Shown here piece by piece: positions 23,178 through 53,595 of a stretch of DNA of 64,000 nucleotides. The position numbers and the translations under genes were made by a program. The notes under the pieces were generated by a model that worked only from the letters and a program-made list of their open reading frames with translations, did not search any database and was not told the origin of the DNA. The stretch's first letter is position 1. Each line of letters begins with the position of its first letter. Source of the stretch: Cyanophora paradoxa CCMP329 (taxonomy: Eukaryota > Plantae > Glaucophyta); the NCBI GenBank assembly GCA_004431415.1, contig QPMI01000262.1, positions 1 through 64,000 on the forward strand. The letters run 5' to 3'.

Positions 23178-23188
23178 TTATGCATACT

Positions 23189-25521: not shown

Positions 25522-27080
25522 CTAGAGGGCGGGGGTGCGGGGCGCGGGGGCGGCGCCCGCGGGGATGTCGAAGCGGGGACCCGGAGGGGCTCGCAATCGA
25601 GGCGGCGGGCGAGGCGTGGGGAGCTCGAGGCCGATGTCGCCCTCCGCGCGCCCCCGCCGGGGCCCCGCCGCGGGGGCCGGGGCGGGGGCTGGGGCGGGGC
25701 TGGGGCGGGGCGGGAGGAGGGCGCGGAGGCGGTTGTGGAGGGCGAAGCGGCGCAGGCCGCGGGGGTCGCCGTCCCCCGCGAGGAGCCCCGCGAGCCCCGC
25801 CCCGCCCCGCCGCCTCGCGCTCGGCCTCGGGGCCTCGGGCACGGGCTCGAGGCGGCGCGGCGGCGGCCGCCGCGCGGGGCCGGGCAGCTGGTGCGCGGCG
25901 AGCAGGCGCAGGAGGCCGCGGGCGCCGCAGCAGCCGGGGACGACCTCGGGCGCGGCGCGCATGCGGGGCGCCTCGCGGTCGGGCGAGGGGGCGGAGGGCG
26001 GCGGCGGGCCAGGGGGTCCCCGCCGTGGTGAGGGCGGCGCTGAGGCCGAAGAGGAAGAGGGTGGGGAGGTCGTCGGGGAGGCCGGCGCCGGCGGCCAGGA
26101 GGCGCAGGGGCACGGCCGCCGGCTCGCGGGCGGCGGCGGCGGCCCAGCCGGCCGCCAGCGCCTCCAGGCTCCCCTCGAACGCCTCCCGCGTCATCGCCCC
26201 CAGACCCCGCGAGTCCACCGCCCCTGCACCCCGGCCCCATCCCCGTCAGCGCGGATCGGGGAGATCGATCGCGAGGGGGTGGGGCCCTCGCACAGTTGGC
26301 GCAGGCGAGGGAGGCGGAGTGGTGGGGGTCGGGGGGCGGCGGGGCTGGAGATGGCGCGGTGGAGGCCGCTGTGGAAGGCGAGGTAGCGCGGGAAGTCCAT
26401 TGAGCGCGCCCCCAGCGCCGCCGCCACCGCCCGCCCCGCCCCCGCGCCGCCCCGGCCCCCGCCCCCGAGGCCGCGAGGTCGCCGGGGCCGCGGGCTGAGG
26501 CCTCCCAGATGTTGAGGACGAGGCGGGCGCGGAGGGCCGGGGGTCGAGCTCGGGGCCTCGAGGGGGGGCGGGGCGGGGGTGCGGGGCCGCCGGGCTCGCG
26601 ATCGAGGGCGAGGGAGTTGGAGCGGGAGCTCGCGCGGGAGCTCGCCGCCGACGAGGCGGCGCTCGCCATCGACCCCGCGCTCTTCGGGGAGAGCAGCTGC
26701 GCCCCGCGGCCGGGGCCCCGGTGAGGCCTAGGCCTCCTTGCGGCAGGGCCGCGCGCGGGCGGGACGGTGCGGGGGCGCACCTCGGGGAGCTCCGAGTCGG
26801 ACTCGCTGCTCACGCACAGCGCCGCCTCCGGCTCCGGCGACTCCTCCCCCGGCGACCGGCGCGCTCGAGCTCGGCGCCCGCGCCCCGACTCCGCGCCCTT
26901 GCAATTGACAGTGCAATTGATCCGCGGCAAGGCGGTCATGCATATGGCCATGGGCGCGGCTGCAGCTGCGGTCTCGGCCGCGGCACCGGTACCAAGCGCC
27001 GGCCCGGAGCCAGCGGCCGCGGGCGCTTTCCGGGCGGGAGCGAGGCCCAGGGACAGCTTCTTGATCCTCCCGAGATCCAT
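25522..27080 (-). CDS. Hypothetical protein, multi-exon
   Basis: Host-like exon/intron pattern. Segments MDLGRIKKLSLGL, ASSAASSRASSRSNSLALDRE, RARLVLNIWE, MDFPRYLAFHSGLHRAI, DSRGLGAMTREAFEGSLEALA, LRRFALHNRLRAL. No family recognised. Confidence 0.55.
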
Positions 27081-27657
27081 TAATATATCACAGCAACCGT
27101 CTTCGGCCGCGCGCAAGAGAACGAGGGTCGAAATTTTCCTGCGCAAATCGAACGTGGCTGTAAGCTTAAGGAGCGCGCCTGCAATGCGGCAGGGCGCGCG
27201 CTCGGATCACGGCGCGTGCGCGCGCCCTGGGCGCTCCGGCGCGGCGCACCAGTTTCGCAGAGCTCGAGTCTTTGACAGCCTGGGAGTTTGATCCGTCTAC
27301 CGCAGTACCTTTCGAAGCTAAAACCGTCGGAAGACGAGCTCGAGTATGTGTCCGCGTGCGCGGTGCTGGCGCTATGCGCTCCGGCTCCTCTAGATCTAGA
27401 TCCGATCTTCAAGGCTTCGAATTCACGAAATTCGAAGTAGTCGCGCGCGCGCTCCAGTCTGCATATCCGAGATCGCGATGATCGATCCGCGCCGCGGACC
27501 GCGAGCAGCGCCGGCGCTCAGCTGCAGGGCCGGCGCCTAGCGCGGCGAGCGCGCATGCGCAAATTCAGCAGCGCAATGCGCATGTGTACCGGACCACTAC
27601 CGGTATATATTATAACTTAGTAAGGCGGTATATATACCGTACCGATATCGATCGATA

Positions 27658-27912
27658 CCGTAATACACAATATTATGTCATGCAAATTTATGTCGTTTTA
27701 AAACCCGAGCCTTCTCTATGCGAAATATGACGTCCCCAAATTATGTCGGCATGAACTTTTCAGGCTTGTATGGGGCGGTAAAAGTGGGGGGATACCTCAT
27801 TGCGCGCCCCATTATCATCGACGTCCCCAAATTATGTCGTTTTGTCAAACTTTAGGCGACATAATTTCGGGACGACATAATAAAGTACAGACCTTAATAT
27901 TGTGCATTACGG
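27658..27912. mobile_element. MITE with TA target-site duplication (Tc1/mariner-pogo type)
   Basis: TA|CCGTAATACACAATATTA ... TAATATTGTGCATTACGG|TA (18-bp TIR, 1 mismatch). Internal repeats GACGTCCCCAAATTATGTCG x2 and inverted GACATAA motifs. Confidence 0.85.
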
Positions 27913-28124
27913 TATACTTAGTGGCGAGTCACTGGCGAGTCAGTGGCGACACTAGTACTAGTACTGGCGAGCGGGATAATGCCGGGATTATCGGGATTCC
28001 CGGGATCGGAATCATTGCAAGCTATAGCTAGTTCGAGTCGGTACTACTCGGTAGCAGGGCCTAAGCAGGCTACTAAAGCTAGCATGCATATGGCGCCGGC
28101 CGGGAGCTGTATACGTACTACAGT

Positions 28125-28833
28125 CAGTGATGGAATTAATAATTAACCCAAAAATGGGACTTTATAAGAATCATTATTAATAGTTAATAATTAGTTATTA
28201 GTTGATTATTAATTACTTTCTCATACAAAACGCGCTCTAAGGCAAACTGAGGGCGCCCCGCTGCGTTCTGTCGATGCCAGACCATGCAAACACACTCCAA
28301 TTAGGCATACAAAGCATGCTAGACTGCCAGGCTATGTGCTCACATGCTATCTTCCTCCTCTTCAAGAGCAGAAGCTAGGAGAGAGGGGCCCTCCCCCACG
28401 TAATCGTCACCGAACTCGACGTCATCGGGCAGGGCGTGGCGGGAATGGAGGCCGACGGGGCGGAGGAGGCTCTGGATGCTCTCCATGGGGTCGCCCGCCT
28501 CGTCGTCGGAGTCGTTCAGAATGAAGTCCAGCATCGACTTGCGCGGCGCGGGCGGCGCCATGGCCGGGGCCGCGGGGGCGACGGCAGCCGAGCTGGAGGC
28601 GGCGACAGGCACGAGGGCGCGCGAACTGGAGCTGGGGCCAGCAAGTCGTTGCACAGCGCGGCGCAGCGTAGGAGCGCGTAGCTGCGAAGAGCAACGCTGC
28701 GAACAAGTGTACCCCCCAAAACTTTTAACAGTTATTAATAAGAATGGCTGTTCGGGGACCTTATTAATAACGCATTATTAATTAGTTATTAATTAACTAA
28801 TAAAAAACGTTATCAATAACATTCCCATCACTG
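28125..28833. mobile_element. Non-autonomous hAT-type element (709 bp)
   Basis: TIRs CAGTGATGG(G)AAT, a perfect 8-bp TSD ACTACAGT (28117-28124 and 28834-28841), and AT-rich subterminal TTATTAA repeats. Confidence 0.88.
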
Positions 28834-29424
28834 ACTACAGTCTACAGTACTATACTGAGTAGCTGGCATTTGCTGCTAATTATATAATAGCCTGCTATAG
28901 GCTATAGCTGCCGCAGTGCGCATGCTAGCTTTAGTAGCCTGTTACCGACTCGAACGGACTCGTACCAATCATATATACGCTTTTGCGCTCGCAAAGGGGG
29001 TACTTTAAAACATTTACTATACGAAAAGAAAACAAGTAAGAAAAAAGCAATGGAGCAAAAAATCCTAAAAAAATGCAATGCGGAGCTAGGTACCGGTGCG
29101 CATGTCCCGGATCCGGCGCGAATTCCGGGACCCGGGTCCGGCTATTCAGCGTCAATTCAATATGTGTTCGATTTCTCCATCATTTATAAATTACAGTGTC
29201 AGACTGCAATTTCTGCAAATTCTGTCTGCAATGTCACTGCATGTCACTGTGACTCACTGAGTCAGCTCAATGGTTTGATTTTCATCATGGATCGCATATG
29301 ATTGAGCCCGAGGCACTCGCGATCGATCAGCCCGTCTATCGGAATTCGAAAACACTTCCGAAGTTCAATATTTAATACTAACATATGCATACAGGCTTTA
29401 TTATTACAGAGCCCGAATATTATT

Positions 29425-30572
29425 TGGCCTGCCCCGACGGCGCTCGGCCTGCCCTCGCGGGGCGCTGTGCATATACCGTCCCGGGCGGCCCGTCGAGCGG
29501 CCAGGAAGAGACATGGCGCTTTTTAGTGTTGCTGCACTGGCAGCGTGCCTGCGCCACCGTTTCTCGCTTTTCCGCCTGCGCCGGGCCGCCATGGCGCGCG
29601 CCCGCCTCACTCTCCTCGCCCCAGGCCTCAGGTTCTTGCTCCATCGATCCACCCCCGCCCCCGCCCCGCCCCCGCCCCCGGCCCCCGTCGCCCGGCCCTC
29701 CCTGCCAGGCGGCGACCCGGGCTCTGGTCCACCTCCTCTCTGGCCCTGCAAATGCGGCGACCCCACCCCCCCCCCCCCCCCCCCCGCCGGCATGGCCGTG
29801 GCCACGGCCGCGGCCCCCGCCATCCTGACCCTCCCGATCCCCGCGCCAGCGGTGTGCGGCAGCGCGACCCGTGGCCGCGTCGGCGGCGGCCACGGGGTGG
29901 GCCTCCCACCTTGACGACGGCGAACACTAGCAGAGACGGCCCCTGCGGCCGGGCGTCCTCATTTCCTTTTTGTATTCGGGCCTTCCCCTCCCTTCCTCCG
30001 TTCCGCTCCGTTCCTCGGCCTCAGCCAGCTATAGCGCCGCTAGCAGTACCTATTATGTAGAGCCCCATCGAATTTTTAGATGATTACGTCGACTACAAAC
30101 TCATGTACATAGCCGTAGGGACCAGCCAGTGCTTATTTTCAGTCGATGTCCCACTTCGCCTCACCGCCCACTAGTCTCTCCCGACGCCGACAGCATTCCG
30201 GAGACGAGCACCTGGCGCCCGTTAGGGGGCGTCAGCTCTACTCGCCGCGTGGCGGACTAGGTTCGCGGGGCGGCCCCTGGCTGCCCTGACGCACCAGCCC
30301 TCTAGAGGGCGTCCCCATGCCCCGACGGGTCCGGTCCGGCACGCTTTTATATATGCATACCTCGTAGATCTACGACATCGCCTCAGTTCATCGATATCTG
30401 TGCGATCGGTTTTCCACCTCGGCTTCTAGCACTATCACCTGTACATATACCTCTTCATAGTGGCCCCGCGCCCCCGCTGTCTGGGGCGGGCGCCAGTAGA
30501 GTAGCACGCCTCGGTCACGTAGATAGAGGTGTGCTTGAATAACGCAAACGACCCCGGCGGGGTCCCCTCCTG
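29425..30572. mobile_element. Unclassified 1.15-kb insertion flanked by 16-bp direct repeats
   Basis: GAGCCCGAATATTATT at 29409-29424 and 30573-30588. GC-richer interior with no recognisable ORF. Confidence 0.45.
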
Positions 30573-31417
30573 GAGCCCGAATATTATTACAGCGCAGGCC
30601 TATTAAAATATTAGCTAGTAGACTGCAGTCTGCAGGCTGCAGCTGCCTAGTAAGTGGCTACTAGTAGCCTGCTCAGCGCCATAGAGCAAATTAAAATACT
30701 GCGGTACCAAGTTAATATTACCGCGTTTTATATTTTGAGTCTTGTATACGTAATGGGCGGTGATTTGGCCGATTTGGGGGCCTCGCCGCGGCGATTCCTC
30801 GCGATCGATACATATATCGATATCGCGCCGTCGGAGACTCCGGATCCGAGGCTCCTCCGACTCCTCCGAGTCTCGGCGACCTGAGCAGAGGCTGCTCGAC
30901 TCGGCGATCGAATTGCTCGACTCGGCGATCGAATTCGGACTCTCGATCGCGAATTTCGGAGGCTGCCTTAAATTGGGCCCTTCAATTCCCGCCGCAATTT
31001 CCCGGGCCTTAATGCGAGCCTCGGAGCTTTACATAATTACATTCAGCCTTCATGTTCAATTCAGCCCTTTTTTCCTGAAGCCGAAGTCTAGGCCCGAAGA
31101 GATATATCGAGTCAATAATCGACAAGGTTTTGTTCGCGGCAAGCCATTGGACGCAAATACTTTTTTAGGTGGTTTTAATGGCGCCCGACGAATCGGCGAC
31201 GATCTGAGTCATCTGAAGATTCTGAACCCCCTCGAAATTATAAGCCATGGCCAAATCAGAATTCGAATTCGAAGTCCAAAAACGCCATTGGTCGCAGTTT
31301 CGTTTCCAAGCGCGCCGTTGGTTCCTGGAAAATTGCAGTTGCAAACATTTGCATACATGTGTACATGTGAATCACTGTGAAATTGTGAATGAGTGCGCAT
31401 CCACGCAGCTGCCATCA

Positions 31418-31925
31418 TTGGGGAAGGACCCGATCGGGGCGGAGGCGCGGCGGGCGGCGGCGCGGCTCGCCGTGCGGGGCGGAGGCCCTCCTGAGGCGCG
31501 GCGGGCGGCGGCGCGGCTCGCCGATCGGGGCGGATCCGGGAGGCACGGCGGGTGGCGGCGCGGCGCGCAGGGCAAATTGTCCCATTCCCGCACGGCTTCT
31601 TGTTCCAGGTATACGCCTAGTGAGCATTTGCTGCAGCCTGCAGACTCTGAGATGCTGTCTTTGTTGAATAAGACCACATGGCCACCTTGCACGAGCAGGG
31701 GGCGGGGGCGAGTCGAAGACTGATTGACCTGCTTGTCCTCTTCCGGTCCCACGAGCTCGATTGCGAGCCCGGCCGACCGTCCCAGTTGCAATTACAGGCG
31801 TTCGGGCAGCTCAGCGGCCGCAGAGTCAGCGGCTAATTTTATAACCTGACCTTTCCTGCTCAACCGTTAGAGGTCCTTCCCCTCCAACAGGGGCAGTGCA
31901 ACTGCAGTGTCCCTGTTCCGTTCAT
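31418..31925 (+). mobile_element. Internally deleted Helentron/HLE2 element, copy D
   Basis: The 5' terminus TTGGGGAAGGACC joins directly to the minisatellite. The 3' part, subterminal IR and hairpin match copies B and C. Confidence 0.8.
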
Positions 31926-32274
31926 ATTGCACTGCGGCATGCGCAACTTGCAATCCGATCCGATATCGATCCGATATCGATGACCTGTACATGTTAAATA
32001 TGATTTGGGACTCTGATATATAGACATATATATTTCGTCAAAGGGAGGGCAAGATCTAGATTTTATAACCCACCAATTAACGGGCTGCAGCTGTTCAACT
32101 GTGAAGTCAAGATGATTTAGTGTTACACGTGCACGGTATCGATCGCGATCGCTGGACTCAGTGGATTCGCTGCACTTATCACAGTGTGTCATTTCGCAAT
32201 CTCATCGGATCATGATTCATGATCCGATGATCACCGGGATGTTTGTTTCAAGTTTGCAATGCCAATGACATGGC

Positions 32275-32449
32275 AAAAAAATGTAAATTGGGCATACTGC
32301 CCCACGAAATTATATATGGTAATAAAATCGAATAAACTTTAAACTTTTCGATATTCCACAAACGTTTCGACAAAACCAAATCAAAAACAAACCATTCACA
32401 GTAACCACACAAAACAAAACGTAAAATCTCAGTAAGCCTCAGTAACAAC
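32275..32449 (+). repeat. Left terminal inverted repeat of the virus
   Basis: AAAAAAATGTAAATTGGGCATACTGCCCC...CAGTAACAAC; reverse complement of 43468-43643. Confidence 0.97.
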
Positions 32450-32818
32450 TTAAAACCTCTCATTTTTTACTGTATTTTTTGAACGCTTTTTTACTGTATT
32501 TTCTACACTAGAAATGACGATAGAAACGACAATAAAAACAATAGAATTTAAATTGTTTTTTAATCGTATATATGTCAATATATCAATGTAGTATATATGA
32601 TATATATCATGTAAAATCGATTTATAGTCAAACCTATAACATATCGATTTGTGTATATGTGATATATATATATATGACGTCATAATGACGATACATATGT
32701 ATATGATATATATGACATACCACGTGACTCGGGAGATCATGACGATCACGGCGATGTGTTCATTATCATATGCATGACTTGGACCAATCAGCTATCGATG
32801 ACTCTTCTGTGGCTCACA

Positions 32819-33070
32819 GGTGGCTCATCGATAGATCAATGGGTCTTATCACATCATCGGTGGCTCATCGATAGATCAATAGGTCTTATCATATCATAGG
32901 TGGCTCATCGATGGATCAATGGGTCATACAACATTATCGATCTCGGATCGATAGATGAATGGTTCAATATTTTTCAATGGTTGAGTTTCGTAGTATATAC
33001 TCGTAGTATAAACTTGTAGTATAATTCCATAGTATAAATCCGTAGTATATACTCGTAGTTGATACTCGTC
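32819..33070. repeat. Tandem repeats in the viral non-coding left arm
   Basis: 40-bp unit GGTGGCTCATCGATAGATCAATGGGTCTTATCACATCATC starting at 32819, 32859 and 32899. It is followed by ~13-bp GTAGTATA-core repeats (32988-33070). Confidence 0.85.
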
Positions 33071-33301
33071 GTAGAAACCCCAGGAATAACTTGAACCGGG
33101 GTATATATTTGTTCGACATTTCGTCGAAATTTCGGTAAATCGATTATCGGCATCTTCAAACGCTTGTATCTCACCACCAGATGGTCAACTCGCAACGTTT
33201 TGCATAGCGTTTTGAAGCGCTTGTTAAGCTCTACACAACTACGTAATCATCGTATTATTTCAAGCTACCTTGTCATACAATATTTCTCACAAATCGTCCT
33301 T

Positions 33302-34060
33302 TCACACACTGATTGTGGTCATTTCTCGTTGGATCCGAGCCATCTGACCCCTTTTAATTGCTTTTCTCTTCACAAACTTCTTAAAGCCCTTCATATCATC
33401 ATCAGTTAGTACTGCTCTATCAGTATAGGTCTTGATATCATAACCTTGCAGGCTCGCTATGACAGTTTGATAATTATAGCCCCATAGTCTATGCAATTCC
33501 TTGTAGGTCTTCTTATCCATTCCACCATTGTACTCATCAAAGGCGCAATTGAACTCTTTTTCGTTCCCAAGAATATTGAAAAAGACTACGAACTCAACAT
33601 TTCGACGAATCGTAGTAGAAATAGAGCATAAACGCTGAACATTAAATATTACCGAGATTGAATAATGTCTTCCACTCGTGACCAATTTAGATAACACAGC
33701 CGAATTGTGCATATCCAAATTTGAACCTATCATGTCATCGAGTATGATGACTAGGTTATTTCGCTTTTCGTTATTCTCGATTCGTTTCTTTTGCATACTG
33801 ATCAATCTCAAAACAATGTTATCATCCCATTCCTCATAGATGTTATCGGGATGGGTGATGTCATTGAATTGCCCAGTAAAAGCTGTGGAACTAAATATTA
33901 CAATCTGATCTATCTTGTCACGAAGCTCGTAAAGTAAGTATTTTGTAAACATTGTCTTACCTGTATTGGAGCGACCAACATTTAAAATTCTCGTTGGGAT
34001 TCGAACTGTCTTACTCGGATCGAACTCCGGAATATCATCTAAGTTTACTGTGTTATCCAT
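33302..34060 (-). CDS. A32-like (FtsK/HerA) genome-packaging ATPase
   Basis: Walker A ILNVGRSNTGKT, Walker B VIILDD, and the A32 motifs SGRHYSIS and NVQ..STTIRRN. Confidence 0.95.
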   Translation of the reverse strand: MDNTVNLDDIPEFDPSKTVRIPTRILNVGRSNTGKTMFTKYLLYELRDKIDQIVIFSSTAFTGQFNDITHPDNIYEEWDDNIVLRLISMQKKRIENNEKRNNLVIILDDMIGSNLDMHNSAVLSKLVTSGRHYSISVIFNVQRLCSISTTIRRNVEFVVFFNILGNEKEFNCAFDEYNGGMDKKTYKELHRLWGYNYQTVIASLQGYDIKTYTDRAVLTDDDMKGFKKFVKRKAIKRGQMARIQREMTTISV

Positions 34061-34138
34061 TACAGTAATAAGATAAAAAACAAAATAAACCCTTACCTAC
34101 TAATTTTGCGCTTCCTACTCTAACGAAAGAAAAGAACT

Positions 34139-35364
34139 TTAGAAGTTCGAGACTTTCAGGGTAGAGATGTTGTAGCCATTTAGGACCATAACATTGTGTC
34201 GTAGGGCATAGATGTCAACCTGAACAGGAGCAGCATCAGTGCATCCCGAAACAGTGAGATCCATGTAACTCGAGCTGCTGTTGAAGAAATCCTGGTAACC
34301 CATAACCGAGTTCCGAAGCGAATCTTTTCCGGACTTGGAAAGAACAATTCCATAAACATTTCCAGACTCGAATCCGTACGTGGTATTGCCCACAGTAACA
34401 CCCTTGTAGTGAGAAGGAATGTGATTGACAGCAGAGAGGAAACCGGAAATGGGTTTGTTAGATATATCCAGGGAGCGATTGTTGTGGAAGATCTGGAACT
34501 GATCAATCTTAACAGCAGATTCATGACCGCAGAAATCCGAGTGAGTGTAGGTGTTAAGTTTGTTCACCTCTCGAACAGTCATCAGAATCGAGTGAACCAG
34601 ACCAGAAACATTAGCGAGTGTAACCTCAACAGATTCACCAGCATCAGCGGTTTTGAGCGCTCGGGTCTTCTTGTGAATGACCTCTGTGATCGGGATGCGA
34701 ATGCCACCTTGTTCGTTTGCCATTTTAAGGAGTGTCTCAGCCTCAGCCGAAGCAATGTTTACGAATTGGCAGATCAGAGAGCAATCCGCAAAGGTTACAG
34801 ATCCACCAGCCGGAACTTGGACAATCGCAGCATCACGGAAATCAACCTCGATTGTTGGCATATCGGCTAGCGTACATAATGGGAAATAAGCTTCTTCCCA
34901 GAAAGCAGCGGGATTCTAACGATGTATTCCATTGCTTCATCTGTGCTTTCACGATCTGTCTCTTTGAAGTAACCGAGAGAAGCATACATGCTGCTCATGG
35001 TAGCGTGATCATTATCGACCAGGGCGTTTACAGTGATCCAATCACCAGGGATAATATACTTGAAACCACCATGAACGAAACGGACCTCATTAATAAAAGA
35101 AGAACCACCATTGGGGAGGGTGCAGGCTACACCACCACCAGTGGCAATCTTGAAATAGAGCGAAACACCAGCAAGGAGTTGCTTGCGAGGTAGATCAAAG
35201 TAAGCCGTATTCTTGAAGCCAAAAGTGTTGCCTCGGGGACGAACTTGCTCGAGGAATGGTTTGTATTTGGGGTTGGTTCCGATTTGGAGACCAGGGGAAA
35301 GATAAATTTGATCGGAACCGGAAGTTACGAGGAGTTCCTTCAGGGTAGTTCCAGTGAGTGCCAT
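34139..35364 (-). CDS. Double jelly-roll major capsid protein (~408 aa; one frameshift near 34905)
   Basis: The two track ORFs join as ...YIVRIPL|FWEEAYFPLCTLADMPTIEVDF... Beta-rich sequence with motifs GSDQIYL, FDLPR, GDWI and IYALRHNV. Lies between the ATPase and the penton. Confidence 0.85.
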
Positions 35365-35416
35365 CTCTTATGTTTAAAATACCAAAAGAAATTTTTAAAA
35401 TGCTTTATTAAACAGA
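35365..35416. promoter_or_regulatory. Putative bidirectional AT-rich promoter between MCP and penton
   Basis: 52-bp AT-rich spacer between divergent ATGs. Function is inferred from the arrangement only. Confidence 0.45.
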
Positions 35417-36304
35417 ATGACGCGTTACTATCTCAATATTGATTCCAGGGACCGATCGGATGGAACCCCAACTAATTTCACATACAGACTCCCTTATGCA
35501 ATCCAAAAGGTCAGAGCCTGTCGAGTAACGAACTTTGAGATGTTTCACAATCTTTACAACCTCTCTGAAGTAGGAACCCTCACCACACAAACACTCGATA
35601 ATGCTGGGAACCCAAAGAATAGAAACAACGAAGTCCTCCGAGGTGCATATACACCGGATTCACTGGTGAATTATCTGATCGCTCGCATTGGATCCCAGCC
35701 CTATAATCAAGCGGGTGGCGGAACTTACACTCGCCATTTCTATGTAACCTATGATCCCACAACATTGCTTCTAAGGTTCATGTGTGAGGTTCCATTCTCA
35801 ATCACTATGAACACTCAACTCTTAGCCAATTTCTGTGGTTTTGAAAATGCTAACACACTGTACCAATCGAGTCCTCTATCATCTAATGTCACAGTTGGAG
35901 CCTTTACTTATGCTCACTACATTGATAGTGAAATGCCATTAGATCTACTATTTAATTCCTATTTGCTTCTTCATGTTGATCCACTGAAAGGAAGATATGT
36001 GAGCAATAACAAACGAGATAACAATGCTATCGCGAAAATTGAGATTGACCAAACGGTTGGCAGTCTATTAAAATATGATTCATCGAATAATTCCATGATC
36101 GTTCACGAGCAGAATGGCTTGGTTGAGGTTGAGACTCTAGATGTGAGACTTTCTTACTGGAATGGAGCCACAGCAGACATTACTACCGACTGGTCGATGA
36201 CTCTTGAACTGATTACTGAAGATGATAAAGATCTGACGAAAAAAGCATTGAAGAATGTCATAAAAGAGTTGGAGGGACTCTACCTGCCGTTCTCACGGTC
36301 ATAG
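35417..36304 (+). CDS. Minor capsid protein (penton, single jelly roll)
   Basis: N-terminal YLNIDSRDR...PTNFTYRLP and C-terminal LDVRLSYWNG...DWSMTLEL, typical of PLV/NCLDV pentons. Confidence 0.88.
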   Translation: MTRYYLNIDSRDRSDGTPTNFTYRLPYAIQKVRACRVTNFEMFHNLYNLSEVGTLTTQTLDNAGNPKNRNNEVLRGAYTPDSLVNYLIARIGSQPYNQAGGGTYTRHFYVTYDPTTLLLRFMCEVPFSITMNTQLLANFCGFENANTLYQSSPLSSNVTVGAFTYAHYIDSEMPLDLLFNSYLLLHVDPLKGRYVSNNKRDNNAIAKIEIDQTVGSLLKYDSSNNSMIVHEQNGLVEVETLDVRLSYWNGATADITTDWSMTLELITEDDKDLTKKALKNVIKELEGLYLPFSRS

Positions 36305-36340
36305 GAAATACTGTAGAATAAATTTGTTTCAATATTACAA

Positions 36341-37101
36341 ATGGCTCGCAAGACTCAACCCAAGAATTTCTTAGCCAAACCAGCCGCTGAAGCGGATGTT
36401 GGCAATGGTGAGAATGGAAGGAACTGGTATAAGAAATCGAAAGGACTCGCTGCATACGGAACTGGTGACCTCGAAAAGGAAGTCCATAAAGAACGAAACC
36501 AATTCACCCAAGCCACTACGAAAAACAGTAATGATGATAATGCCCTTGTTGACCAAGTCCCACTGAACCGCATGCCCGGAGCCAAACGAGGAATCAAGAA
36601 AGGACAGTTCAAATCATCCACAAAGGACAAGGTTGCATCATCATCGACACTGCTGAAACTGCTTGATGGTGGTGAGCGACTCTACTCAACCTATTCGAGA
36701 AAGACCATCGCAACCGCTACTTTATTCGTTCAACCACTGGTGGACTGAAATCTGTAACATATCAGTATGCTAAGAGTCTTGTTGATGGTATTGCAGCAGA
36801 GACCAAAAACGAAAACAAGATCAAGGAACAGCCAATCACAAAGGAAAAGGTTGAGAAGAAACCAGAAGTAACCCATGAAGTTATTCCCGAACCTGTTCAT
36901 GTGGCAAAAGACTCACCTACAGAATTGATTGCAAAGACCATTGAGTATCAAGACTCCAACAAAACGGATTTGCCGGTTCTCAATAAGTCGATCCTTCGGG
37001 TTGCCACTTCACAGGCTGATCCAGTCAACTCGATTCCAAATGCTGCCCCAATGGTCTCTGGATTCGCCAAGCTTGGTATAAGACCCGGTTATCGCCGTTA
37101 A
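36341..37101 (+). CDS. Viral hypothetical protein (~253 aa; frameshift near 36675)
   Basis: ORF 36341 continues in another frame as ATLLNLFEKDHRNRYFIRSTTGGLKSV... into ORF 36901-37101. Basic N-terminus. Confidence 0.65.
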
Positions 37102-37452
37102 GGATCAATCTGAATAATATAATTTCTCAAACATTGTTAGCGCTACGTAACCAATCCTATCCCGTAGGCTCAAAACTTCTTCATTTTTATGGAGGCGTTG
37201 TAGAGCGAAGTGAAATATCCATAGGTAAATCACTTTAATCACCTGTTCTACCGGGTTCAGTGGTAGAAACTTGCAGCCGACAAGTGAACCTTCTGGTATC
37301 GGTAGCTTTATCATTTTTCCAGCATCTTCTTTTGTACTGGATGCTCTGCAATCGGGACCAAAATTGATTGGGTTCTCACAAAGAATATATACACGACATA
37401 AAAACTACTTAAAGATTTCTTAACATATATTAAGAGAGTAGAAAGGACAAGA

Positions 37453-37806
37453 ATGACGATCACAGAAGCCCAAAAGAAAGCAACTTACCGCTACCGTAAA
37501 ACAGAAAAGGGTATGTTAGCGCTTGCTAGGATTAATGAGAAACGCAATGCAAAATGGAACGAACTCTACAACAATGATGAAGAATTCAGACAAGCTCACA
37601 TAATGACTTCATGCAAGGCTCAATATGTAAATAACACCATTCTCTATGTAAAGTATCTATTTGACGTTCCTCGTACCAACCGCGGACGTCCATCAAGTAT
37701 GTTAATGCTTGTTAATCGTTTTCTCAGCGCGATTGCTCTGAGAACCCGCGGAAACCGCGCTGGAAGCAAAACTATAAATCTTTCTGTTATTTTTAGAGTT
37801 CGATGA
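37453..37806 (+). CDS. Small basic viral hypothetical protein
   Basis: MTITEAQKKATYRYRKTEKG; ATG follows an AT-rich spacer. The 3' end is uncertain. Confidence 0.6.
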   Translation: MTITEAQKKATYRYRKTEKGMLALARINEKRNAKWNELYNNDEEFRQAHIMTSCKAQYVNNTILYVKYLFDVPRTNRGRPSSMLMLVNRFLSAIALRTRGNRAGSKTINLSVIFRVR

Positions 37807-37945
37807 TCGAGCCAACCCTTTGTTATTTTTATAAATGCCTCGACTGAATTTATTTTGTTGGAGACTTTTGGTTTTGCCGGTAAAATTTGACGCGAGTATA
37901 AAATGACTTAAGGAAATAAAATATAGAGTATATATAAAAGTGAAA

Positions 37946-40900
37946 ATGCCTCGCGCAGTAAGTATTCAGAATGCTAGAAAGAGACAAGGAATGCTAGCAA
38001 AGCTTGGTTACCTTCTTGGTGCCGGAATCATAAATGAAGAGCAATTTAACGCATTGGGTTACTTTGCCTTCATTAAGAGACTTCGATCTGCTGGTCTGAA
38101 GGACATAAGCGATACAATTGATGGTATTATTGCCAGGGGTGAGGGCAGACTGAATGAGCAGGATGAAATCGAGAGATTTGGTAACATTGAGGTTATTGAA
38201 GGTGGAAATAAGAAGACCAAAGCAGAGCGGATCGCTGAAAAACGAGACAAGAGAGCTGAAAGGAAGCAGCAGAAGAAGCAGAAGAAAGCAGGGAGAACCG
38301 CTAAGAATGTTGAGAAGCAGAAGGTTAGAGAAAGAATAGCAAAGGAGGCAAAACAGCAGAGAGAGGATGAGAAGAAGCAACGAGAGGAGGCAGAGGTGAT
38401 GCAGGCTATGAATAGTCTTGTAAGTGAGGTCACTTGGAGGAACCAGACCAAAGATAACATCGCTTCTGCCCATGAGTTTATTGATAGGGTTGTTCGTTGG
38501 GATCCCTTTTACAATCGTTTTCGAGATGCTCTTCGTAACAGACGAGGTATTAAGTATAACCTCTACAGCATGGCGAGATATGTGAAAGTGGCAACTGGAG
38601 AAATAAGAACCATGCAATGGACCACCCCATTCTACCTTCTTGTCAATGATCAAGAGATTGTTGATACTGTTGATGAATCAATTGATGCATTGCAGGAGGT
38701 TCTCACTTCACCTGATAGTTGGAAGCTAGAAAACATCTTAACAGTTCGCTTGCAGATTCTTACTTATCAGCCACTCGCAGGTAGCTCCTATATTGACCTC
38801 CCACCAGGAATAAAAAAGCGTAAAGCTGTGATTAATCCACAGAACAAAGATAATAAATGTTTCGCATGGGCGGTAACTATTGGACTACATCAACATGAGC
38901 TATCTCATAAACACCGATATGATGTAAAGCGATACAAGAAGTATGAGAATGAGTTCAATTGGAATAAGTTTGAGTTCCCATTCAAGAATGATCCTCGTCA
39001 GTACGAACGAGCATCAAAATGATTGGTCGACCAATCAATGTGTATATGGTCGATCGATCACATATCGTTCCAGTCCATATCTGTAAGGACCCATCCCAAC
39101 AACATCTTACAATTGACATTCTTCTGTGGACTGTCAACGAAAAAACCCACTATGGTTACATTTCTAGCATGTCAAGGTTAATATCGAATTCACACCATGG
39201 AACTCGCCATTTCTGTAAAGCTTGTTTGAGAGGGTTCACCAGTGAAACGGTATTGGAGAGACACATTAAACACAACAAGTGTTACGATCGACCAAATGCA
39301 ACAGTTGACACAATGCCACCAAGCGGATCTAAGACCAAGTGGGACCCAAAGAGACATGTTGACAAGACTGTATGGCATCCAATGTTTGTTGTTGCTGACT
39401 TCGAATGTATATTGCAAAAGGTGGATGAGACACGAGGTGAAAACACTGCAGTCTACCAGAAGCACATTCCAAGTGGATACAAAATCATGGTTATCCACAA
39501 CGAAGAGATTATAAAACAGGTATTGTATCGGAAGGAGAACCCAGAAAATGATGATGAGGTTACACAGCACTTTATGGAGACACTGAAAACGATTGAATCC
39601 GATTTACTTGAGAAGCTTAGACATGTTGCACCAATGGTTATGGAACAATGGCACAAAGAGGATTACAGAGATTCTGTTGCTTGCTACATCTGCGGAGATG
39701 AGTTTGGAGCTACTATAACTGATGACAATGGTAACACATATCAAGTTAAAAAGGTTAGAGACCACGATCACATTACAGGAGATTACCTTGGAGCAGCTTG
39801 CAATACTTGCAATCTGAAACGAAAGATCAATCCAAAGATCCCAGTTGTGTTCCACAATCTAAAAGGTTACGATGGACACTACATTCTGAAGGCTTTGAAT
39901 TTCAATGAACCTGGTAAGGAAATTCGTTGCATTGCCCAGAATTTTGAGAAGTTCATAGCATTCGATATGGGACCATACAAGTTCATGGACTCTTTGAATT
40001 TCATGGCTTCGAGCCTTGATGGTCTGGTAAAGAATCTCAGTAAGAATAATTTCAAATTCACCAATGAGTGGTGTGATTCTGTAAATTACTCACAGGAACA
40101 GCGAGAGCTACTGATGCAAAAGGGACACTTCCTTACGACTACCTGGATAGCTTCGAGAAACTCAGTGAGACCCAATTACCTCCCAAAGAAGCTTTCTACT
40201 CGAAACTCAATGATACTGAATTAAGTGACTCCGACTACAAGCATTGCCAGAGGGTATGGGACGCTTTCAACTGCAAAACTCTCGGAGATTATCACGATAT
40301 CTATCTTTCTACTGATGTTGCTCTGCTTGCTGACGTTTTCAATACATTCCGCAATGTTTGCTACAGTAATTATAAGATCGATCCTATCCATTTCATTTCA
40401 GCTCCTCACCTGTCATGGTTCGCGATGTTGAAATATACAGGTGTGGAGTTGGAGCAATTGAGTGACCCTGAAATGTATAGATTCTTTGAACTTGGAATTC
40501 GTGGAGGTGTTTGCATGGTTCCCAATCGTTATGCAGAGGCTAATAACCCCTACATGAAGTCTTATGATCCATCAAAGTCAACAAAGTATATCACCACTTG
40601 GGATGCCAACAATCTGTATGGGAAAGCGATGAGTTTCAAGCTACCCAGAGGTGGATTTGAGTGGATTGATGACATCGAGAATTTCGATTATATGGGCTTT
40701 GATGTGGAAGGTGATAGAGGTGCAACTTTGGAGGTTGACTTGGAATATCCAGAACACCTACATGATCTTCACAGTGATTTACCTCTTGCTCCCGAATCTC
40801 TAATAATCACCAAGTCAATGATTTCACCAACACAGCTTGAAATGATTGGTGATGAAAAACTACCCCAGACTCGTAAGTTGGTTCCCAATCTGATGAACAA

Positions 40901-41968
40901 GACCAATTACATCCTACACATCAAAAACTTGCAGTACTACATCTCAAAAGGATTGAAGGTAACAAAGGTTCATCGTGGATTATGTATGATCAATCTGAGT
41001 GGCTGAGACCATACATCGATTTCAATACCGGACTGCGGACGCAAGCTCGTAATGATTTCGAGAAAGATTTCTACAAACTCATGAATAACTCAGTTTTCGG
41101 AAAGACCATGGAGAACGTTCGCAAGCGAAGTAACATAAAGCTTTGCAACGATCCAGGGTGCAGCTCAAACACAACGGCAATCCATTGTTGAAGACAGTGA
41201 AGATTATCAATGAGAATCTTACTGCTTTAGAGTTCTATAAGGGTTCTATTATGTTGGATAAACCCATTTATGTTGGTCAGGCTATCTTGGATCTGTCCAA
41301 ACTAATCATGTATCGTTTCCATTACGATTACATCATGGTGAAGTATGGACCTGGATCAGCCAAGCTGCTCATGACTGATACAGATTCCCTGTATTATCTG
41401 ATTGAGACTGACGATATCTACAAAGACATGATTGAGGATTCTCATTGGTTTGATCAGTCTGATTACAGCAAATCCCACATCTGTTACAACCCTAAAAATA
41501 AAAAGGTTCCCGGTTTGTTCAAGGATGATTGTGGTGATTATCTCGTTACAAGGTTTGCTGGTTACAAACCAAAGCATACTCCTACGAGAAGGAGTTGAAT
41601 GTTAAGGCTCTGGGATCAGAAGAAAATGTAAAACAGGTGATTGCTGACAAGTTGAAGGATTTGTTAAGAGTGAAGTCGAATGCTACGGAAGCTGATGTTA
41701 TTGATAGTAAGGTTAAGAAGTTGAAGGGAGTTCAGCGGTCAGTAGTGCAGAATAGGTTAGAGTTCCTACAATTCTACAACACTGTCATGTATCCAATGAA
41801 GGAGCGGAGAAAGTAACAGTTCGAGGTTTCCGATCAAAGAACCACGAGGTAACAACGCAGGAAATGAAGAAAAGGGCATTCAATGCGCTCGATACTAAGA
41901 GGTATCTTTGTGAGGACCTCTATACTACTCTTGCGATTGGACACTATAAAACAAAAACAACACTATAA
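37946..41968 (+). CDS. polB: Protein-primed family B DNA polymerase (Maverick/Polinton type) with vOTU-like, C2H2 and EndoVII-like domains; six frameshifts
   Basis: [35 protein letters not shown], ExoI VADFEC, CYICG..RDHDH..CNTCN, Exo[20 protein letters not shown], Exo[57 protein letters not shown]. Confidence 0.96.
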
Positions 41969-41973
41969 TAAGG

Positions 41974-43032
41974 ATGGACCAGGTTCTGAGTTATACCAAG
42001 TATCGACAGAAATTGATTAAAGAAGGTATCACATTTGATGAGGAAGAACTAAGAAAGCGTTTTAAAAATCAAGAGCTTGAGCAGATCTTTAAGAAGCCCA
42101 AAAAGCAAAAGTCTTTCTTGCGGATCATTGCTCCACCCAATTCCTTTCAGGTTGATGTGATTTATTTCAAAAGCTACAAGACAGCAACACATGGAGTGGA
42201 TAGGATGCTGGGATTTGTCGATATATTGAGTCGGAAAGCATTTGTATACCCTTTCAAGCCAAAGGATTCGAAAATCGATATTTTCAACAGGTTCAAAGTT
42301 GAGGCAGGCAAGGTTAGTGCTATCTCAGGAGACAATGAGTTCTCTGCTGAGATTTATAGGAAATGGTGTGAGGAAAACAATGTTACACTCTACACTGATG
42401 TAGCTAAGAATGACCACATCACAGTAGGTGATAAACTTGGTATTATCGATAGGTTCACCAGAACTTTTAAACAATATTTGAGAAAAGCAATAGTTTCGAG
42501 TGGGAACCCAAAATGGACTGATTATTACAAACAGGTTCTGGCAACTTACAACAACAGTCCACACACTTCCCTAAAGAATGATTCACCCAATGCAGTGTAT
42601 GGGAATAACGAGAAAGAATCGTTCATATATTTGCGTGATGCATTGCATAACAAACGTATTAAAGAAGGTAGCCCAACAGTAAAGGAGGGAGATTATGTTC
42701 GAGCTGTAACTGAAAAGAAGACTTTCGATAAAGAAGGAGCAAGATACAGCAAACAAGTGTATAAAGTAGCAGGCAAGGTAGGTAATCGATTTAGTTTATT
42801 GGAAGAGAATGAGGGAGAGAGTCCAAAGGAAGTAAAACGAAACTTTAAACTGAACGAGTTGCAAAAAGTAGATAAGGCAGCAATTGTTAAGATTCCCACA
42901 CAGAAGCGTGTGGAGCGAGTGAAAAAAACAACGAAGGTAAATAGATTAGTAGCAAAAGAGGGTATCAAGCCCAATAGGAGCAAAGTAGTTAGGAAGAGGT
43001 ATAATTTACGAAGCGGGTTGACTAGACGTTAG
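41974..43032 (+). CDS. Retroviral-like (rve) integrase
   Basis: FQVDVIYF, VDILSRKAFVYP, ISGDNEF, GIIDRFTRTFK, YNNSPHTSL..SP and an SH3-like GDYVR..FDKE..YSKQVY. Consistent with the 6-bp TSD. Confidence 0.94.
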   Translation: MDQVLSYTKYRQKLIKEGITFDEEELRKRFKNQELEQIFKKPKKQKSFLRIIAPPNSFQVDVIYFKSYKTATHGVDRMLGFVDILSRKAFVYPFKPKDSKIDIFNRFKVEAGKVSAISGDNEFSAEIYRKWCEENNVTLYTDVAKNDHITVGDKLGIIDRFTRTFKQYLRKAIVSSGNPKWTDYYKQVLATYNNSPHTSLKNDSPNAVYGNNEKESFIYLRDALHNKRIKEGSPTVKEGDYVRAVTEKKTFDKEGARYSKQVYKVAGKVGNRFSLLEENEGESPKEVKRNFKLNELQKVDKAAIVKIPTQKRVERVKKTTKVNRLVAKEGIKPNRSKVVRKRYNLRSGLTRR

Positions 43033-43310
43033 GCTGTGAGGTATGAACCATCTTTCGATTCAACAATTTTCGTGATAGGTCTGAACACTTTGAAAATTTC
43101 TTTATAATGGATTCCTTTAACATACCAACCCTTATGAATTGGGTCCCATCTGAGACCATAAGATTTCGCTAATTGGATGTCTTTGAAAGCAACTTGACAA
43201 AACATTTTAACATTAATGTATTTGATTTCGTCTTCTGTTAGTTTTCGGAATTCTTTGAAGATCTCACTGTTTTCATCTTCAACAAACCATAGCTTCTTTT
43301 CAAAATCCAT
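43029..43310 (-). CDS. Small viral protein with DUF5710-like domain
   Basis: VAFKDIQLAKSYGLRWDPIHKGWYV fits the AK.GA.WD...K.WY pattern. The N-terminus (MDFEKKLWFV) looks like a partial second copy. Confidence 0.7.
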   Translation of the reverse strand: MDFEKKLWFVEDENSEIFKEFRKLTEDEIKYINVKMFCQVAFKDIQLAKSYGLRWDPIHKGWYVKGIHYKEIFKVFRPITKIVESKDGSYLTA

Positions 43311-43467
43311 TTTGCTCCTTTTGATTTCACGGATTCGCGATCATCATATCGAGAGAAAATGTAAAAGCGTTGTTGTGGCTTGGTTTCCATTTTTATTCAG
43401 ATTATCAGATTATTTTTATATGAAACAATCAATGAGGAATAACCGAGATTATGATATAACATCGATT

Positions 43468-43643
43468 GTTGTTACTGAGGCTTACTGAGATTTTACGTTT
43501 TGTTTTGTGTGGTTACTGTGAATGGTTTGTTTTTGATTTGGTTTTGTCGAAACGTTTGTGGAATATCGAAAAGTTTAAAGTTTATTCGATTTTATTACCA
43601 TATATAATTTCGTGGGGCAGTATGCCCAATTTACATTTTTTTT
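43468..43643 (-). repeat. Right terminal inverted repeat of the virus
   Basis: Matches the left TIR by eye, except terminal T8 versus A7. Confidence 0.97.
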
Positions 43644-43950
43644 CATGGCCCAGTGGCTACGGGAGAAAAAGTTGGCGGGGGCTCTGCATGCAATCTCTAA
43701 CTTCGGACTCCGGGAATGGCCTGGGCGGGGCCGGCGGTCCCAGCACTGCGCATGCGGGCCGGCCGGGCAGGGACCGGGCGACGGGCGGGGGCGCCGTGCG
43801 CCGTGGGCCGTGGCCCCTGGCCATGGGGCCCGGTGGAGGCGACGGAATGCAGATCATCGGATCGCTAGCTGATAAATGAGATCGATCATCATCATGCCAT
43901 GGCATGATGGGAGCCTCGATTGCAAGGCTTGTGATGACGATGCGAGATTG

Positions 43951-46597
43951 CTAGCGGCCAAGGAGGGAGACCTGGGGGCGGGGGCGGGCGTTGGGGGCAG
44001 GAGTCGAGGGGCGCGGGGCGCTGAGAGACGGGGCGGGGAGCTGCGAGGGGGCGCTGCGGACCTTGCCGAGGTCGGCGGCGATGCGCCAGCCGCACGCGAA
44101 GCCGGAGAAGGCGACGGCGTTGAGGCCCTGGCCGGGGAAGGTGCTGCGGTGGGCCCGCGTGAGGCGCGCCCGGCGCGGGGCGGGGCGGGGCGGGGCGGGG
44201 CGGGGCGGGGCGGGCCTGTCTCCGACGCAGTAGAGGTTGGGGATCGGGGTGCGGTTGAAGGGCATCCCCAGGAGGCCCGGCAGCACCTTCGACGGGATCG
44301 GCCCGTACGTCCCGTCCGCCCGCCCCAGGTACCGCCGGTGCGTGCGCGGGGAGCCGACCTGCCGGCGAGGCTCGGGGGCGGGGCGCGGGGCGCGGGGCGC
44401 GGGGCGCGGGGCGCGGGGCGGGCCTCCTTGAACTCGACGGCGGCGCCGAGGCCCGGGAGGACGCGCTCCAGGCGGGCGATCAGCCGCCCGCGAACTCCTC
44501 CTTCGCCCGCTCGTACTCCGCCGGGCCCAGGCCCTGCGCACCCGCCCGCCCCCGGTCACCCCGCCCGCGCCGCGCTGCGCCGGGGTGCGGGGCGGGGCGG
44601 GGCGGGACGGGGCGCGCTGGAAGTCGTCGATGGAGGCGGGGGCGAAGGCGTGGACGATGTGGCGGCCCGGGGGCGCGAGGGAGGGGTCGAGGAGGGTGGG
44701 GATGGAGACGAAGAGCGTGCCGGTGCCGTCCGTGGCCTCCAGGCGCGCCCAGTCCTCCAGGAGGATGTGGTGGCACTCCGTCCCCGCGGGCAGCGCCTCC
44801 GCCCGCACCCCCAGGTGCATCGACAGGAAGCTCGGGCTCTTCTCGTACCGGCCCCGCCACCTGCCCCCCGCGCCCCGCCCCCGAGCCTCGGCATCCGGCG
44901 CCGCACGGCGGGGCCGGGCCGGGCGGGGCGGGGCGGACCACTTCTCGGTGATGGGCGTGCGCTCCTCGGGCAGCAGCTTCCCGAACGTGTCCCACCTGCG
45001 CCGCCCCCGCCCCCGCCTTCACACGCCGCACAGAGGCGCGCCCCGGGCCGCCCCGGCGCACCGCGTGGCGTTCGAGACGATGCGCTTCCCGCGGAACGTC
45101 CGCCCGTCCGCCGTCTCGACGCCTGCGGCCGCCCCCGCCGCGTCGTCGCGCTGAGGCGGGGGCGGGGCGGGGGCGGGGGCGGGGGCGGACCGACGGCGGC
45201 GCCGGCCTCGGTGAGGATGCGGGTGGCGCGGGAGCGGTAGCGGAGGCGGCCGAGGCCGGTCGCCTCGATGCCGCGGGCGAGCTTGGCGGCGATCTGGCCG
45301 ACGCCGCCGCGCGGGTAGTTGATGCCGCCGAAGTGGCGGTCGGAGAAGACCATGCCGGCGTTGATCATGGGGGTGCGCTCGGCGGGGACGACGCTCCAGC
45401 AGTAGCACTCCATGTCGATGAAGCGGAGCAGCTCCTCGTCGCGGATGTGCTTGCGGGCGATGGCGCCGACGTTGAGGGGCAGGTACTTGACGAGGCCGAG
45501 GCAGGCGAGCGGGTGCTCGAAGAAGACCCGCGCCAGGTACCGCGGCTCCTCCAGCGACAGCAGGTCCATCGCGTTCAGGCAGTTGAACACCGCCCAGCAC
45601 TCGTCGTAGAACGCCCGGATCCCCGCCGCTGCCCGACGGTTCGGCGCCGAGGGCGGGGCGGGCGGGGCGGGGCGGGGCGCGCCTTCGTGGGGGAAGCGGG
45701 CGGAGAGCTCCGCGATGAACTTCTCGTAGTCCCGGTGCACCTGCCGCCCCTCACTCAGCGTTGGCGGCCGGCGCTGGGCGCTGGGCGGGGGGCCGGGCGC
45801 CTGGATGTCGAGGTCGTTGGGGAGGTGGTAGTCGATCTGCACGGGGTCCGGGATCGTCTCGATCTTCTCCCCCACCTGTGCACGCCCCGCTCGCTCACGG
45901 CCCGGGCGGCGCGCGGGGCGGGGCCGGGGGCGCACGAGGGCGAGGGCGCGGGTGAGGAGGTTCGTGGTGCCCTTGTCTCCGAACCCGAAGATCATCGAGG
46001 CGCCAACATCGAACGTGTAACCGTCCCGTTCGAAGTACGCCGAGCTCCCCCCGGGCACCACGTAGCTGGCCGATTGGGCGGTGTCGGCGCGCGGCGGGGA
46101 CAGCGGGGGCGGGGGGCATCACCTCTCGAGCACGAGCGTCTTCAGGCCCTTGGCGACGGTTTGGGCCGCTGTCGTGAGCCCGCCGATGCCGGAGCCGATC
46201 ACAATCACGTCCCAGCCGTCGGACTCCACATCCTCAGCAGCGCTCGCGGCGGGGGATTCCGTAGCGAGCGCAGCGGAGGTGAAAGCCGGGCCTGCGGAAG
46301 CGCACGCCGTGCAGGTCAGCCCCGCGCTGTCGGCCCTGAGCACGCGCACGGGCCGCCGAGGAGATTCTTGCACGCGCGCTCACCCTGGAAGGAGCGGGGA
46401 GCCCGCTTCCTGCTGGCAGCCAGCCTATTGGCATGAGCGAGTCCTTCGAACGACCGGAACTGCTGAGCGCGCCGCGCGCCGGGCTGGGCGATGCTCGCCC
46501 TGTGAACGCCGCTCGGGCCTTGAGCGCACCGCGCAGACGTTTCCTGCACCGCCGCGCGTGCGGGGGCCACGACGGGGGGCGCTACTGCGAAGGCCAT
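43951..46597 (-). CDS. CRTISO: Carotenoid (prolycopene) isomerase, plastid-targeted, multi-exon
   Basis: MAF transit peptide. VIVIGSGIGGL, FDVGASMIFGFGDKGTTNLLTRAL, FIDMECYCWS, TPMINAGMVFSDRHFGGINYPRGGVG, GLLGMPFN, STFPGQGLNAVAFSG. Confidence 0.96.
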
Positions 46598-53414: not shown

Positions 53415-53595
53415 CCCCCCGCCGCAACGCAACCCCGACCCTTGCCCCGTGCCGCCCATCCTCCCCGTGCCCTGCCCTCGCCGCGCCCCATCCCGCCAGG
53501 AGAGTGAAAGAGACGGCTGAAAGGTGGTATTATGCAGGAGGACCCAAAAAGTCGGGCGCTCGGTCTAGCGCTACCTAGGGGCGAGCCGTGAGAGC

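Follow-up and report, generated by a model that had tools for sequence, protein, structure and literature searches.

The closest described relatives of the element reported here are the polinton-like viruses already catalogued in the same alga. It occupies positions 32275 to 43643 of a 64,000-nucleotide stretch (the window) of the Cyanophora paradoxa CCMP329 assembly (contig QPMI01000262.1, positions 1 to 64,000). Tables S2 and S4 of Bellas 2023 (PMC10120064) record 366 matches to major capsid proteins (MCPs) in C. paradoxa, falling into two clusters, and place the MCPs of this alga under the heading 'new', the Maverick-Polinton-Adintovirus block holding zeros for them. Among the 156 glaucophyte elements in Table S6 of Bulzu 2025 (PMC12220804), 139 carry an A32 ATPase, 49 a family B DNA polymerase that is protein-primed (pPolB, PF03175), 85 an rve integrase and none a protease; COG3378 is present in 38 and a Pif1-type match in 34, and the MCP-POL and virophage MCP models are matched by two and none of the 156, respectively. 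Further comparisons draw on Starrett 2021 (PMC8502044), Sarre 2025 (PMC12344493), PMC11071308 and the preprints 10.64898/2026.06.19.733378 and 10.64898/2026.10.13.758929. Statements from the literature, here and below, refer to parts of these publications.

The family is thus already known and the element in the window is one of its members. We consider it very probable that it is a compact, integrated polinton-like virus in an algal nuclear genome, not a strict Maverick, and that it belongs to an intact, multi-copy family whose broken reading frames are assembly errors. Its 11,369 bp have a GC content of 0.40, against 0.70 for the remainder of the window (0.36-0.45 by position within 32-44 kb and 0.51-0.83 elsewhere). 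The arms of the terminal inverted repeat (TIR), at 32275-32449 and 43468-43642, are 175 nt long and 100% complementary; their core matches at 168/168 nt, and outside it lie terminal runs of A7 on the left and T8 on the right. A 6-bp target-site duplication (TSD), CATGGC, flanks the element at 32269-32274 and 43644-43649, where a 6-nt match would arise by chance at about 2.4e-4. An earlier note on this DNA had described just such an AT-rich block of about 11.4 kb in GC-rich host DNA, with 175-bp TIRs that match except for the terminal homopolymer and a perfect 6-bp TSD, and our analysis agrees with it on all of these points. The features are as follows.

32269 to 32274: left TSD, CATGGC, read from the sequence
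32275 to 32449, plus strand: left TIR, 175 nt, starting with A7; contig X8 runs from host position 31897 to 32289 with zero differences
32450 to 33300: AT-rich non-coding region; tandem arrays at 32819-32962 (40 nt x 3.6) and 32988-33073 (13 nt x 6.6)
33302 to 34060, minus strand: A32-type genome-packaging ATPase, 252 aa (Pox_A32, E=1e-15; Walker A and B)
34139 to 35364, minus strand: putative MCP, about 408 codons, split near 34909; a near-identical MCP is published
35417 to 36304, plus strand: probable penton (minor capsid protein), 295 aa, from Atlas look-alikes
36341 to 37101, plus strand: ORF4, a basic protein of about 253 codons, split near 36695; no family match
37105 to 37806: one or two small frames (37105-37404, minus; 37453-37806, plus), from which contigs differ at several single bases
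37946 to 41968, plus strand: pPolB in seven pieces, from PF03175, homology and motifs
41974 to 43032, plus strand: rve-type integrase, 352 aa, from homologs with PF00665; triad D61, D120, D159 (D-D-D)
43029 to 43390, minus strand: DUF5710 protein, about 120 codons (PF18974, E=4.7e-8), split near 43306
43468 to 43643, minus strand: right TIR, T8 end, with two AATAAA on the host-mRNA strand (43596, 43586)
43644 to 43649: right TSD, CATGGC, read from the sequence
43454 to 46430, minus strand: host carotenoid isomerase gene (CRTISO; TIGR02730, E=3e-109 and 1e-58), upstream limit approximate

Gene content and relationships of the element

The ATPase, the polymerase and the integrase named in the earlier note are all present. 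The Pox_A32 match of the ATPase exceeds the curated cut-off. PF03175 was recognized on one piece of the pPolB (E=1.8e-7); its core is 47-57% identical to the best 120 of 6,535 matches, whose named members are animal proteins, and it carries exonuclease and polymerase motifs together with candidate vOTU residues. The integrase of the window itself gave no Pfam match, and PF00665 was found in 4 of its 24 homologs (28-41% identity). In the alignment of these 24 rows D120 and D159 are invariant and D61 is at least 90% conserved.

The morphogenesis module proposed in the earlier note is secure for its ATPase, and its two capsid genes are put forward here with more reserve. The MCP lies in two minus-strand frames (34867-35364 and 34139-34915), and the look-alikes found for its C-terminal half with the Atlas language model are Capsid_NCLDV at 0.96-0.98, a recognition below the reliable level. 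The supplement of Bellas 2023 (PMC10120064) prints a C. paradoxa MCP that was accepted there as a double-jelly-roll protein, with a 97% HHpred match to an ascovirus MCP. That protein matches both halves of the window MCP in one frame, with its own break lying elsewhere, and differs from them, compared by eye, at 8 of about 299 residues (about 97% identity). From these look-alikes and the published protein, the MCP of the element is a putative double-jelly-roll capsid protein. The 295-aa frame is probably a penton, as suggested by Atlas leads at 0.97 to clusters in which 13% of members have DUF5901 and 26% have Sputnik V18/19; it gave no Pfam, PHROG or NCBIfam match.

Several results weigh against these assignments. 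Single-sequence folds made without an alignment reached a pLDDT of 34 for the C-terminal half of the MCP and 32 for the penton. Sequence relatives of the MCP were found in none of 249 candidates of a word-based search and in none of 133 metagenome stretches, and the penton had no relatives in viral contigs (0/2). The third residue of the integrase triad is D, not the usual E. The ATPase likewise had no relatives in viral contigs (0/4), and a PDB sequence search returned one irrelevant match for the N-terminal half of the MCP and none for the integrase. Four matches to the MCP in a representative library were rejected as spurious because they were short (about 40-65 residues) and lay in long multi-stretch proteins.

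With regard to classification, the element combines features of two groups. Like polinton-like viruses it has an A32-like ATPase, and TIRs with an integrase and a TSD; like Mavericks/Polintons it has a protein-primed polymerase and an rve integrase with a 6-bp duplication. The resemblance to Mavericks/Polintons and alpha-adintoviruses (Polintoviricetes) extends to a pPolB with vOTU-like and endonuclease-VII-like parts, the rve integrase, the TIRs and the 6-bp TSD. In a quick pPolB tree with long branches, built from 37 of 119 protein matches and 18 loci and not used to name a donor, the polymerase of the element groups with Mavericks/Polintons and alpha-adintoviruses, the base being unresolved. 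The element differs from Mavericks/Polintons, however, in that no Ulp1/adenain protease was detected, its MCP falls outside their block and it measures 11.4 kb instead of 15-20 kb. No protease family was recognized in 35 frames compared with Pfam or in 17 compared with PHROGs, ORF4 and the two small frames remaining without assignment. Because the protease and the capsid clade, two defining tests of Polintoviricetes, both fail, we file the element as a polinton-like virus, and the Maverick-type assignment of the earlier note is not retained. Nor is the rarity that this note implied: the capsid family is already catalogued in C. paradoxa, where, by the counts of Bulzu 2025, absence of a protease is the rule (0/156).

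With the catalogued C. paradoxa polinton-like viruses the element shares about 97% MCP identity, the set of ATPase, pPolB and rve integrase, and the lack of a protease; it is a sibling of the printed copy, with 11.4 kb against the 14-40 kb quoted. Metagenomic polinton-like viruses (loci L003-L082) carry the same D-D-D integrase family at 27-42% identity, and a pPolB match adjoins the integrase in 25 of 82 loci. These polymerases are mostly 25-30% identical to that of the element, and 17 of 18 fall in a separate clade. In L001 and L068 a Pif1/HNH helicase stands beside the integrase instead of pPolB. The ATPase, MCP and penton of the element had no match at E<=1e-3 in the 82 loci, most of which are short; at L068:762-11786 the integrase family lies by the Pif1/HNH helicase and a Pox_A32 ATPase unrelated (E<=1e-3) to that of the element.

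Mavirus and endogenous mavirus-like elements share with it pPolB and rve, end repeats and the character of an AT-rich insertion in a GC-rich protist genome; it differs from mavirus-type virophages in its capsid type and in having no detected protease, and no virophage-type MCP appeared among the Atlas rows listed for its MCP. On the other hand, mriyaviruses and NCLDV-dwarf viruses have 35-45 kb, VLTF2/VLTF3 and an HUH endonuclease, whereas the element has 11.4 kb and matched none of these families.

The unequal ends also deserve mention. The difference between A7 and T8 appears to be real, the left run being covered by one contig and the right run by six, none with a gap. A 7-bp duplication as its cause was ruled out because the seventh bases differ; speculatively, the difference could reflect slide-back priming. 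Inside the terminal runs (32275-32283 and 43635-43643) the element reads TG...CA, offset 7 and 8 nt from the true ends; TG...CA are the end dinucleotides of retroviral-type integrase substrates. No Rfam family reached the gathering score in 27000-44200.

Broken reading frames and the integrity of the family

Four genes of the element are broken in the window, a point absent from the earlier note: the MCP into two pieces, pPolB into seven, and ORF4 and the DUF5710 gene into two each. In a tblastn comparison with six homologs, pPolB changed frame six times, each time in the same direction. The contigs of DNA run X5 hold one extra base at 39015, 40130, 40976, 41152, 41570 and 41805, five of them at 100% of depth and one at 72%, and another at 43306 in the DUF5710 gene. 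Five of the six pPolB additions recur in diverged sibling contigs of RNA run X15. Over the pPolB, integrase and DUF5710 genes (5 contigs, 5,216 nt), 14 substitutions and 7 gaps separate X5 from the window, each gap being a base that the window lacks. Between 40309 and 41857, all three DNA runs with a spanning contig (X2, X5 and X14) show 0 substitutions and 4 gaps, and the six listed DNA contigs of unique host flank show 0 differences.

Base runs are the preferred site of these additions. Out of 16 single-base additions tested, 15 extend a run of the same base and 14 extend a run of at least two, against a background of 0.18. This set comes from difference tables with 12 of 49 and 12 of 14 rows listed, and excludes paired gains and losses, one 3-nt addition, one loss, one row from a contig of depth 4 and one duplicate. 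Such frame breaks are described as common artefacts in these elements (Bellas 2023, PMC10120064). Since the short-read contigs hold the extra base at all six pPolB breaks, we conclude that the virus family is intact at the polymerase and that the gene breaks are likely long-read assembly errors.

The copy in the window is itself probably intact, although some observations count against this step. Contigs follow the path of the majority and lose rare variants, so that they speak for the family and not for a single copy; real indels favor base runs too; and at the MCP break (34909) the extra base occurs in all three DNA runs but at 34-46% of summed depth. It is therefore conceivable that the family is intact and the window copy truly decayed, its losses being real and the copy mobilizable only in trans by its siblings. 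A variant present in one copy out of ten could be invisible in such contigs, the longer MCP form accounts for less than half of the depth, and the 14 DNA-like runs from 2012-2024, all labelled as one organism, hold only 0.76-0.78 each of the words of 31300-41200. Nonetheless, the six shifts in pPolB all go one way and are all base losses, and a stretch of 1.55 kb with 4 losses and 0 substitutions does not look like neutral decay. The identical end repeats, and a CpG content not depleted relative to GpC in the element (0.81 vs 0.86), disfavor decay as well, and we regard a decayed window copy as quite improbable. The word 'complete' in the earlier note is probably justified, provided that single-base losses in the assembly are allowed for.

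Junctions, copies and transcription

The right junction between host and virus is crossed by DNA contigs over 29 nt (X2, X5 and X14) and bridged by RNA contigs over 31, 119 and 190 nt (X15, X22 and X24). At the left junction one listed contig (X8) crosses by 15 nt, below our 31-nt rule, so that contigs support this junction in part, which weighs against a fully confirmed insertion. No empty-site joint was seen among the 15 of 36 joints listed, which proves nothing about its absence. No further copy or fragment of the element lies elsewhere in the 64-kb window.

Copy number was gauged from ratios of contig depth, and the caution that depth is a rough guide and not a copy number tells against a firm count. 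For single contigs the depth of pPolB relative to the flank was 7.8-14 in five of six ratios and 31 in the sixth, so that about ten near-identical copies (within about 1%) are likely present in the genome. The element can be called young, as in the earlier note, only in the weak sense of identical TIRs and roughly ten siblings within about 1%.

The penton was 2.3-2.7 times as deep as pPolB in all four DNA runs. Depth drops at about 37900-38000, where loose contig ends lie at 37776, 37916 and 37944, and all eight runs concerned hold contigs that match the first ~125 nt of pPolB and then diverge (joint at 37965-38033). These diverging contigs likely represent a sibling replicase gene with a related N-terminus, regularly transcribed. 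Contigs with this pPolB start only (37944-38071) have depths of 75-2,577 in four RNA runs. As the penton is deeper than the polymerase module, the simplest reading suggests module swapping, in which siblings combine this capsid module with other replicases. This agrees with the published replicase counts of glaucophyte elements and with the mosaicism reported across these viruses, and the integrase family behaves alike in the metagenomic loci, adjoining a pPolB match in some and a Pif1/HNH helicase in others. Counting against the main reading, that of one integrated virus, is that the capsid and polymerase modules are not linked by any listed contig.

The same depth step could have another origin, namely a chimeric assembly with true junctions and a body drawn from several family members, in which the pairing of capsid and polymerase would be artificial. 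None of the listed contigs spans the element, and the step with its three loose ends would fit such a chimera. The same 6-bp duplication on both flanks argues otherwise, as does the contig at 37417-37810, which lies before the step and already has a polymerase-like depth in X5 (1,271 vs ~1,000). The published occurrence of pPolB in 49 and of the ATPase in 139 of the 156 elements of Bulzu 2025 also speaks against it, and we consider a chimera very improbable.

The element lies 307 nt behind the stop codon of CRTISO (43951-43953). X15, X22 and X24 each have a contig that lacks a 90-nt GT-AG intron of this gene and runs without difference into the right TIR, reaching 31, 119 and 190 nt into the element; that of X24 crosses the whole TIR to 43454, and the CRTISO contig of X16 ends at 43666, before the junction. 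None of the listed runs is recorded as RNA; X15, X22 and X24 are taken as RNA from the spliced joint, and X16 from a contig stopping at the same intron. These contigs show neither strand, RNA end nor level, and segments without RNA cover were not counted as evidence. Elsewhere in the right half of the element X22 and X24 show almost no cover, so these contigs are most simply read as host CRTISO mRNA that continues into the viral TIR, and this RNA likely ends inside the viral repeat. Neither read-through into the TIR of a polinton-like virus nor its capture as a host 3′ untranslated region (UTR) was found in the literature searched.

Contigs that cover portions of the ATPase, MCP and penton genes reach depths in the thousands in X15 and X16, the CRTISO contig having about 20; in X22 and X24 the contigs over these genes have depths below 5. 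X15 and X16 share a 2.6-kb contig (41071-43642) with 16 substitutions relative to the window, and the RNA contigs that match the window copy exactly are short, shallow ones only. The deep capsid-gene contigs likewise carry many differences from the window, and their source is therefore diverged siblings and not demonstrably the window copy. Sibling expression in two of four RNA runs is a hint only, since contig depth is a poor measure and the two deep runs come from one year. The imbalance between penton and polymerase depth and the deep sibling RNA contigs were not found in print, within the parts of the literature covered here.

The remainder of the window has features of its own. A dispersed repeat of about 495 bp at 31435-31926, 340 bp left of the element, has inverted copies at 21483-21978 and 23188-23685 and a fragment at 4094-4177; the copies are 96% identical. 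With a summed contig depth in X2 of about 31,600, where unique DNA has about 100, it is likely a non-coding mobile element present in very many copies. At 28066-28941, nested inverted arms of 35 nt (28066-28100 / 28907-28941) and 24 nt (28195-28218 / 28780-28803) enclose a 143-codon frame without a Pfam match, and a further arm set lies at 27655-27915; the region may be a small non-autonomous DNA transposon. Host genes in the window are intron-rich, including CRTISO and a nuclear phycobilisome linker gene with introns (53570-55200, minus strand; weak PF00427 match on one exon). Taken with the MCP match, this linker gene places the host among the glaucophytes, likely as C. paradoxa. On the plus strand at 57900-62100, successive exons match the large and small subunits of Fe-only hydrogenase, flavodoxin and FAD-binding domains, which suggests a predicted fusion of [FeFe]-hydrogenase to a diflavin reductase.

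Mode of life and meaning for the family

By analogy with polintons, pPolB would copy the linear genome at the TIRs by protein priming, using its own terminal-protein domain. The ATPase would pump this genome into a capsid built of double-jelly-roll proteins and pentons, no maturation protease being involved, and integration of linear copies, which gives rise to a 6-bp duplication, would fall to the rve integrase. Host CpG methylation likely silences the copy most of the time, because repeats and virus-derived genes are reported to be methylated in C. paradoxa, and the capsid module is likely common to siblings with other replicases. As the trigger of the viral cycle, giant-virus co-infection and activation within the nucleus without a helper seem to us equally plausible, each somewhat short of an even chance; that no particles are made at all is unlikely.

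A self-copying nuclear transposon that carries its capsid genes along, with particles never or rarely made, would fit the missing protease, the multi-copy expansion inside one genome and the lack of close relatives of its ATPase and penton in viral contigs and of its MCP in metagenome contigs. Yet the capsid-module genes are retained and outnumber the polymerase module, siblings have RNA contigs of their ATPase, MCP and penton genes, and the protease is absent in most polinton-like groups; we think this account improbable.

The earlier note also raised a role as a giant-virus parasite or defense element. Gezel-14T, mavirus and the Tetraselmis elements offer an analogy, on which the element might be an inducible, virophage-like defense, replicating solely in giant-virus-infected cells and reducing the yield of that virus. 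Giant-virus-derived regions reported in the C. paradoxa genome are in line with this, as is the result that no RNA polymerase or transcription-factor gene was recognized among the frames of the element with Pfam. Its MCP is nevertheless not of the virophage type, a type with no representative among the 156 glaucophyte elements, and the sibling RNA contigs occur in runs labelled as the host organism alone. The literature search for glaucophyte giant viruses gave only the C. paradoxa methylation study and its preprint. We therefore keep the defense role as a tentative possibility, clearly below even.

As a class, the element changes nothing, as hundreds of capsid genes and 156 elements have already been counted in this lineage. 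It does indicate that a family shown as frameshifted in databases is probably intact, so that attempts at induction are reasonable in this early-branching alga, which can be cultured and from which no isolated virus was found in the literature searched. At its insertion site one can cleanly ask whether the end of a polinton is able to act as a host 3′ UTR. The difference in depth between capsid and polymerase genes points to exchange of modules among siblings within one genome, a process previously proposed from cross-species comparisons. The fullest account, a live virus family of minimal size (11.4 kb) that is helper-free in ordinary culture, swaps its replication modules and has had a TIR captured as the 3′ end of the CRTISO mRNA, seems unlikely to hold in all its parts; if the helper-free cycle and the captured end were true, C. 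paradoxa would provide a glaucophyte virus system open to direct culture, and an example of a host gene that has captured the end of a polinton.

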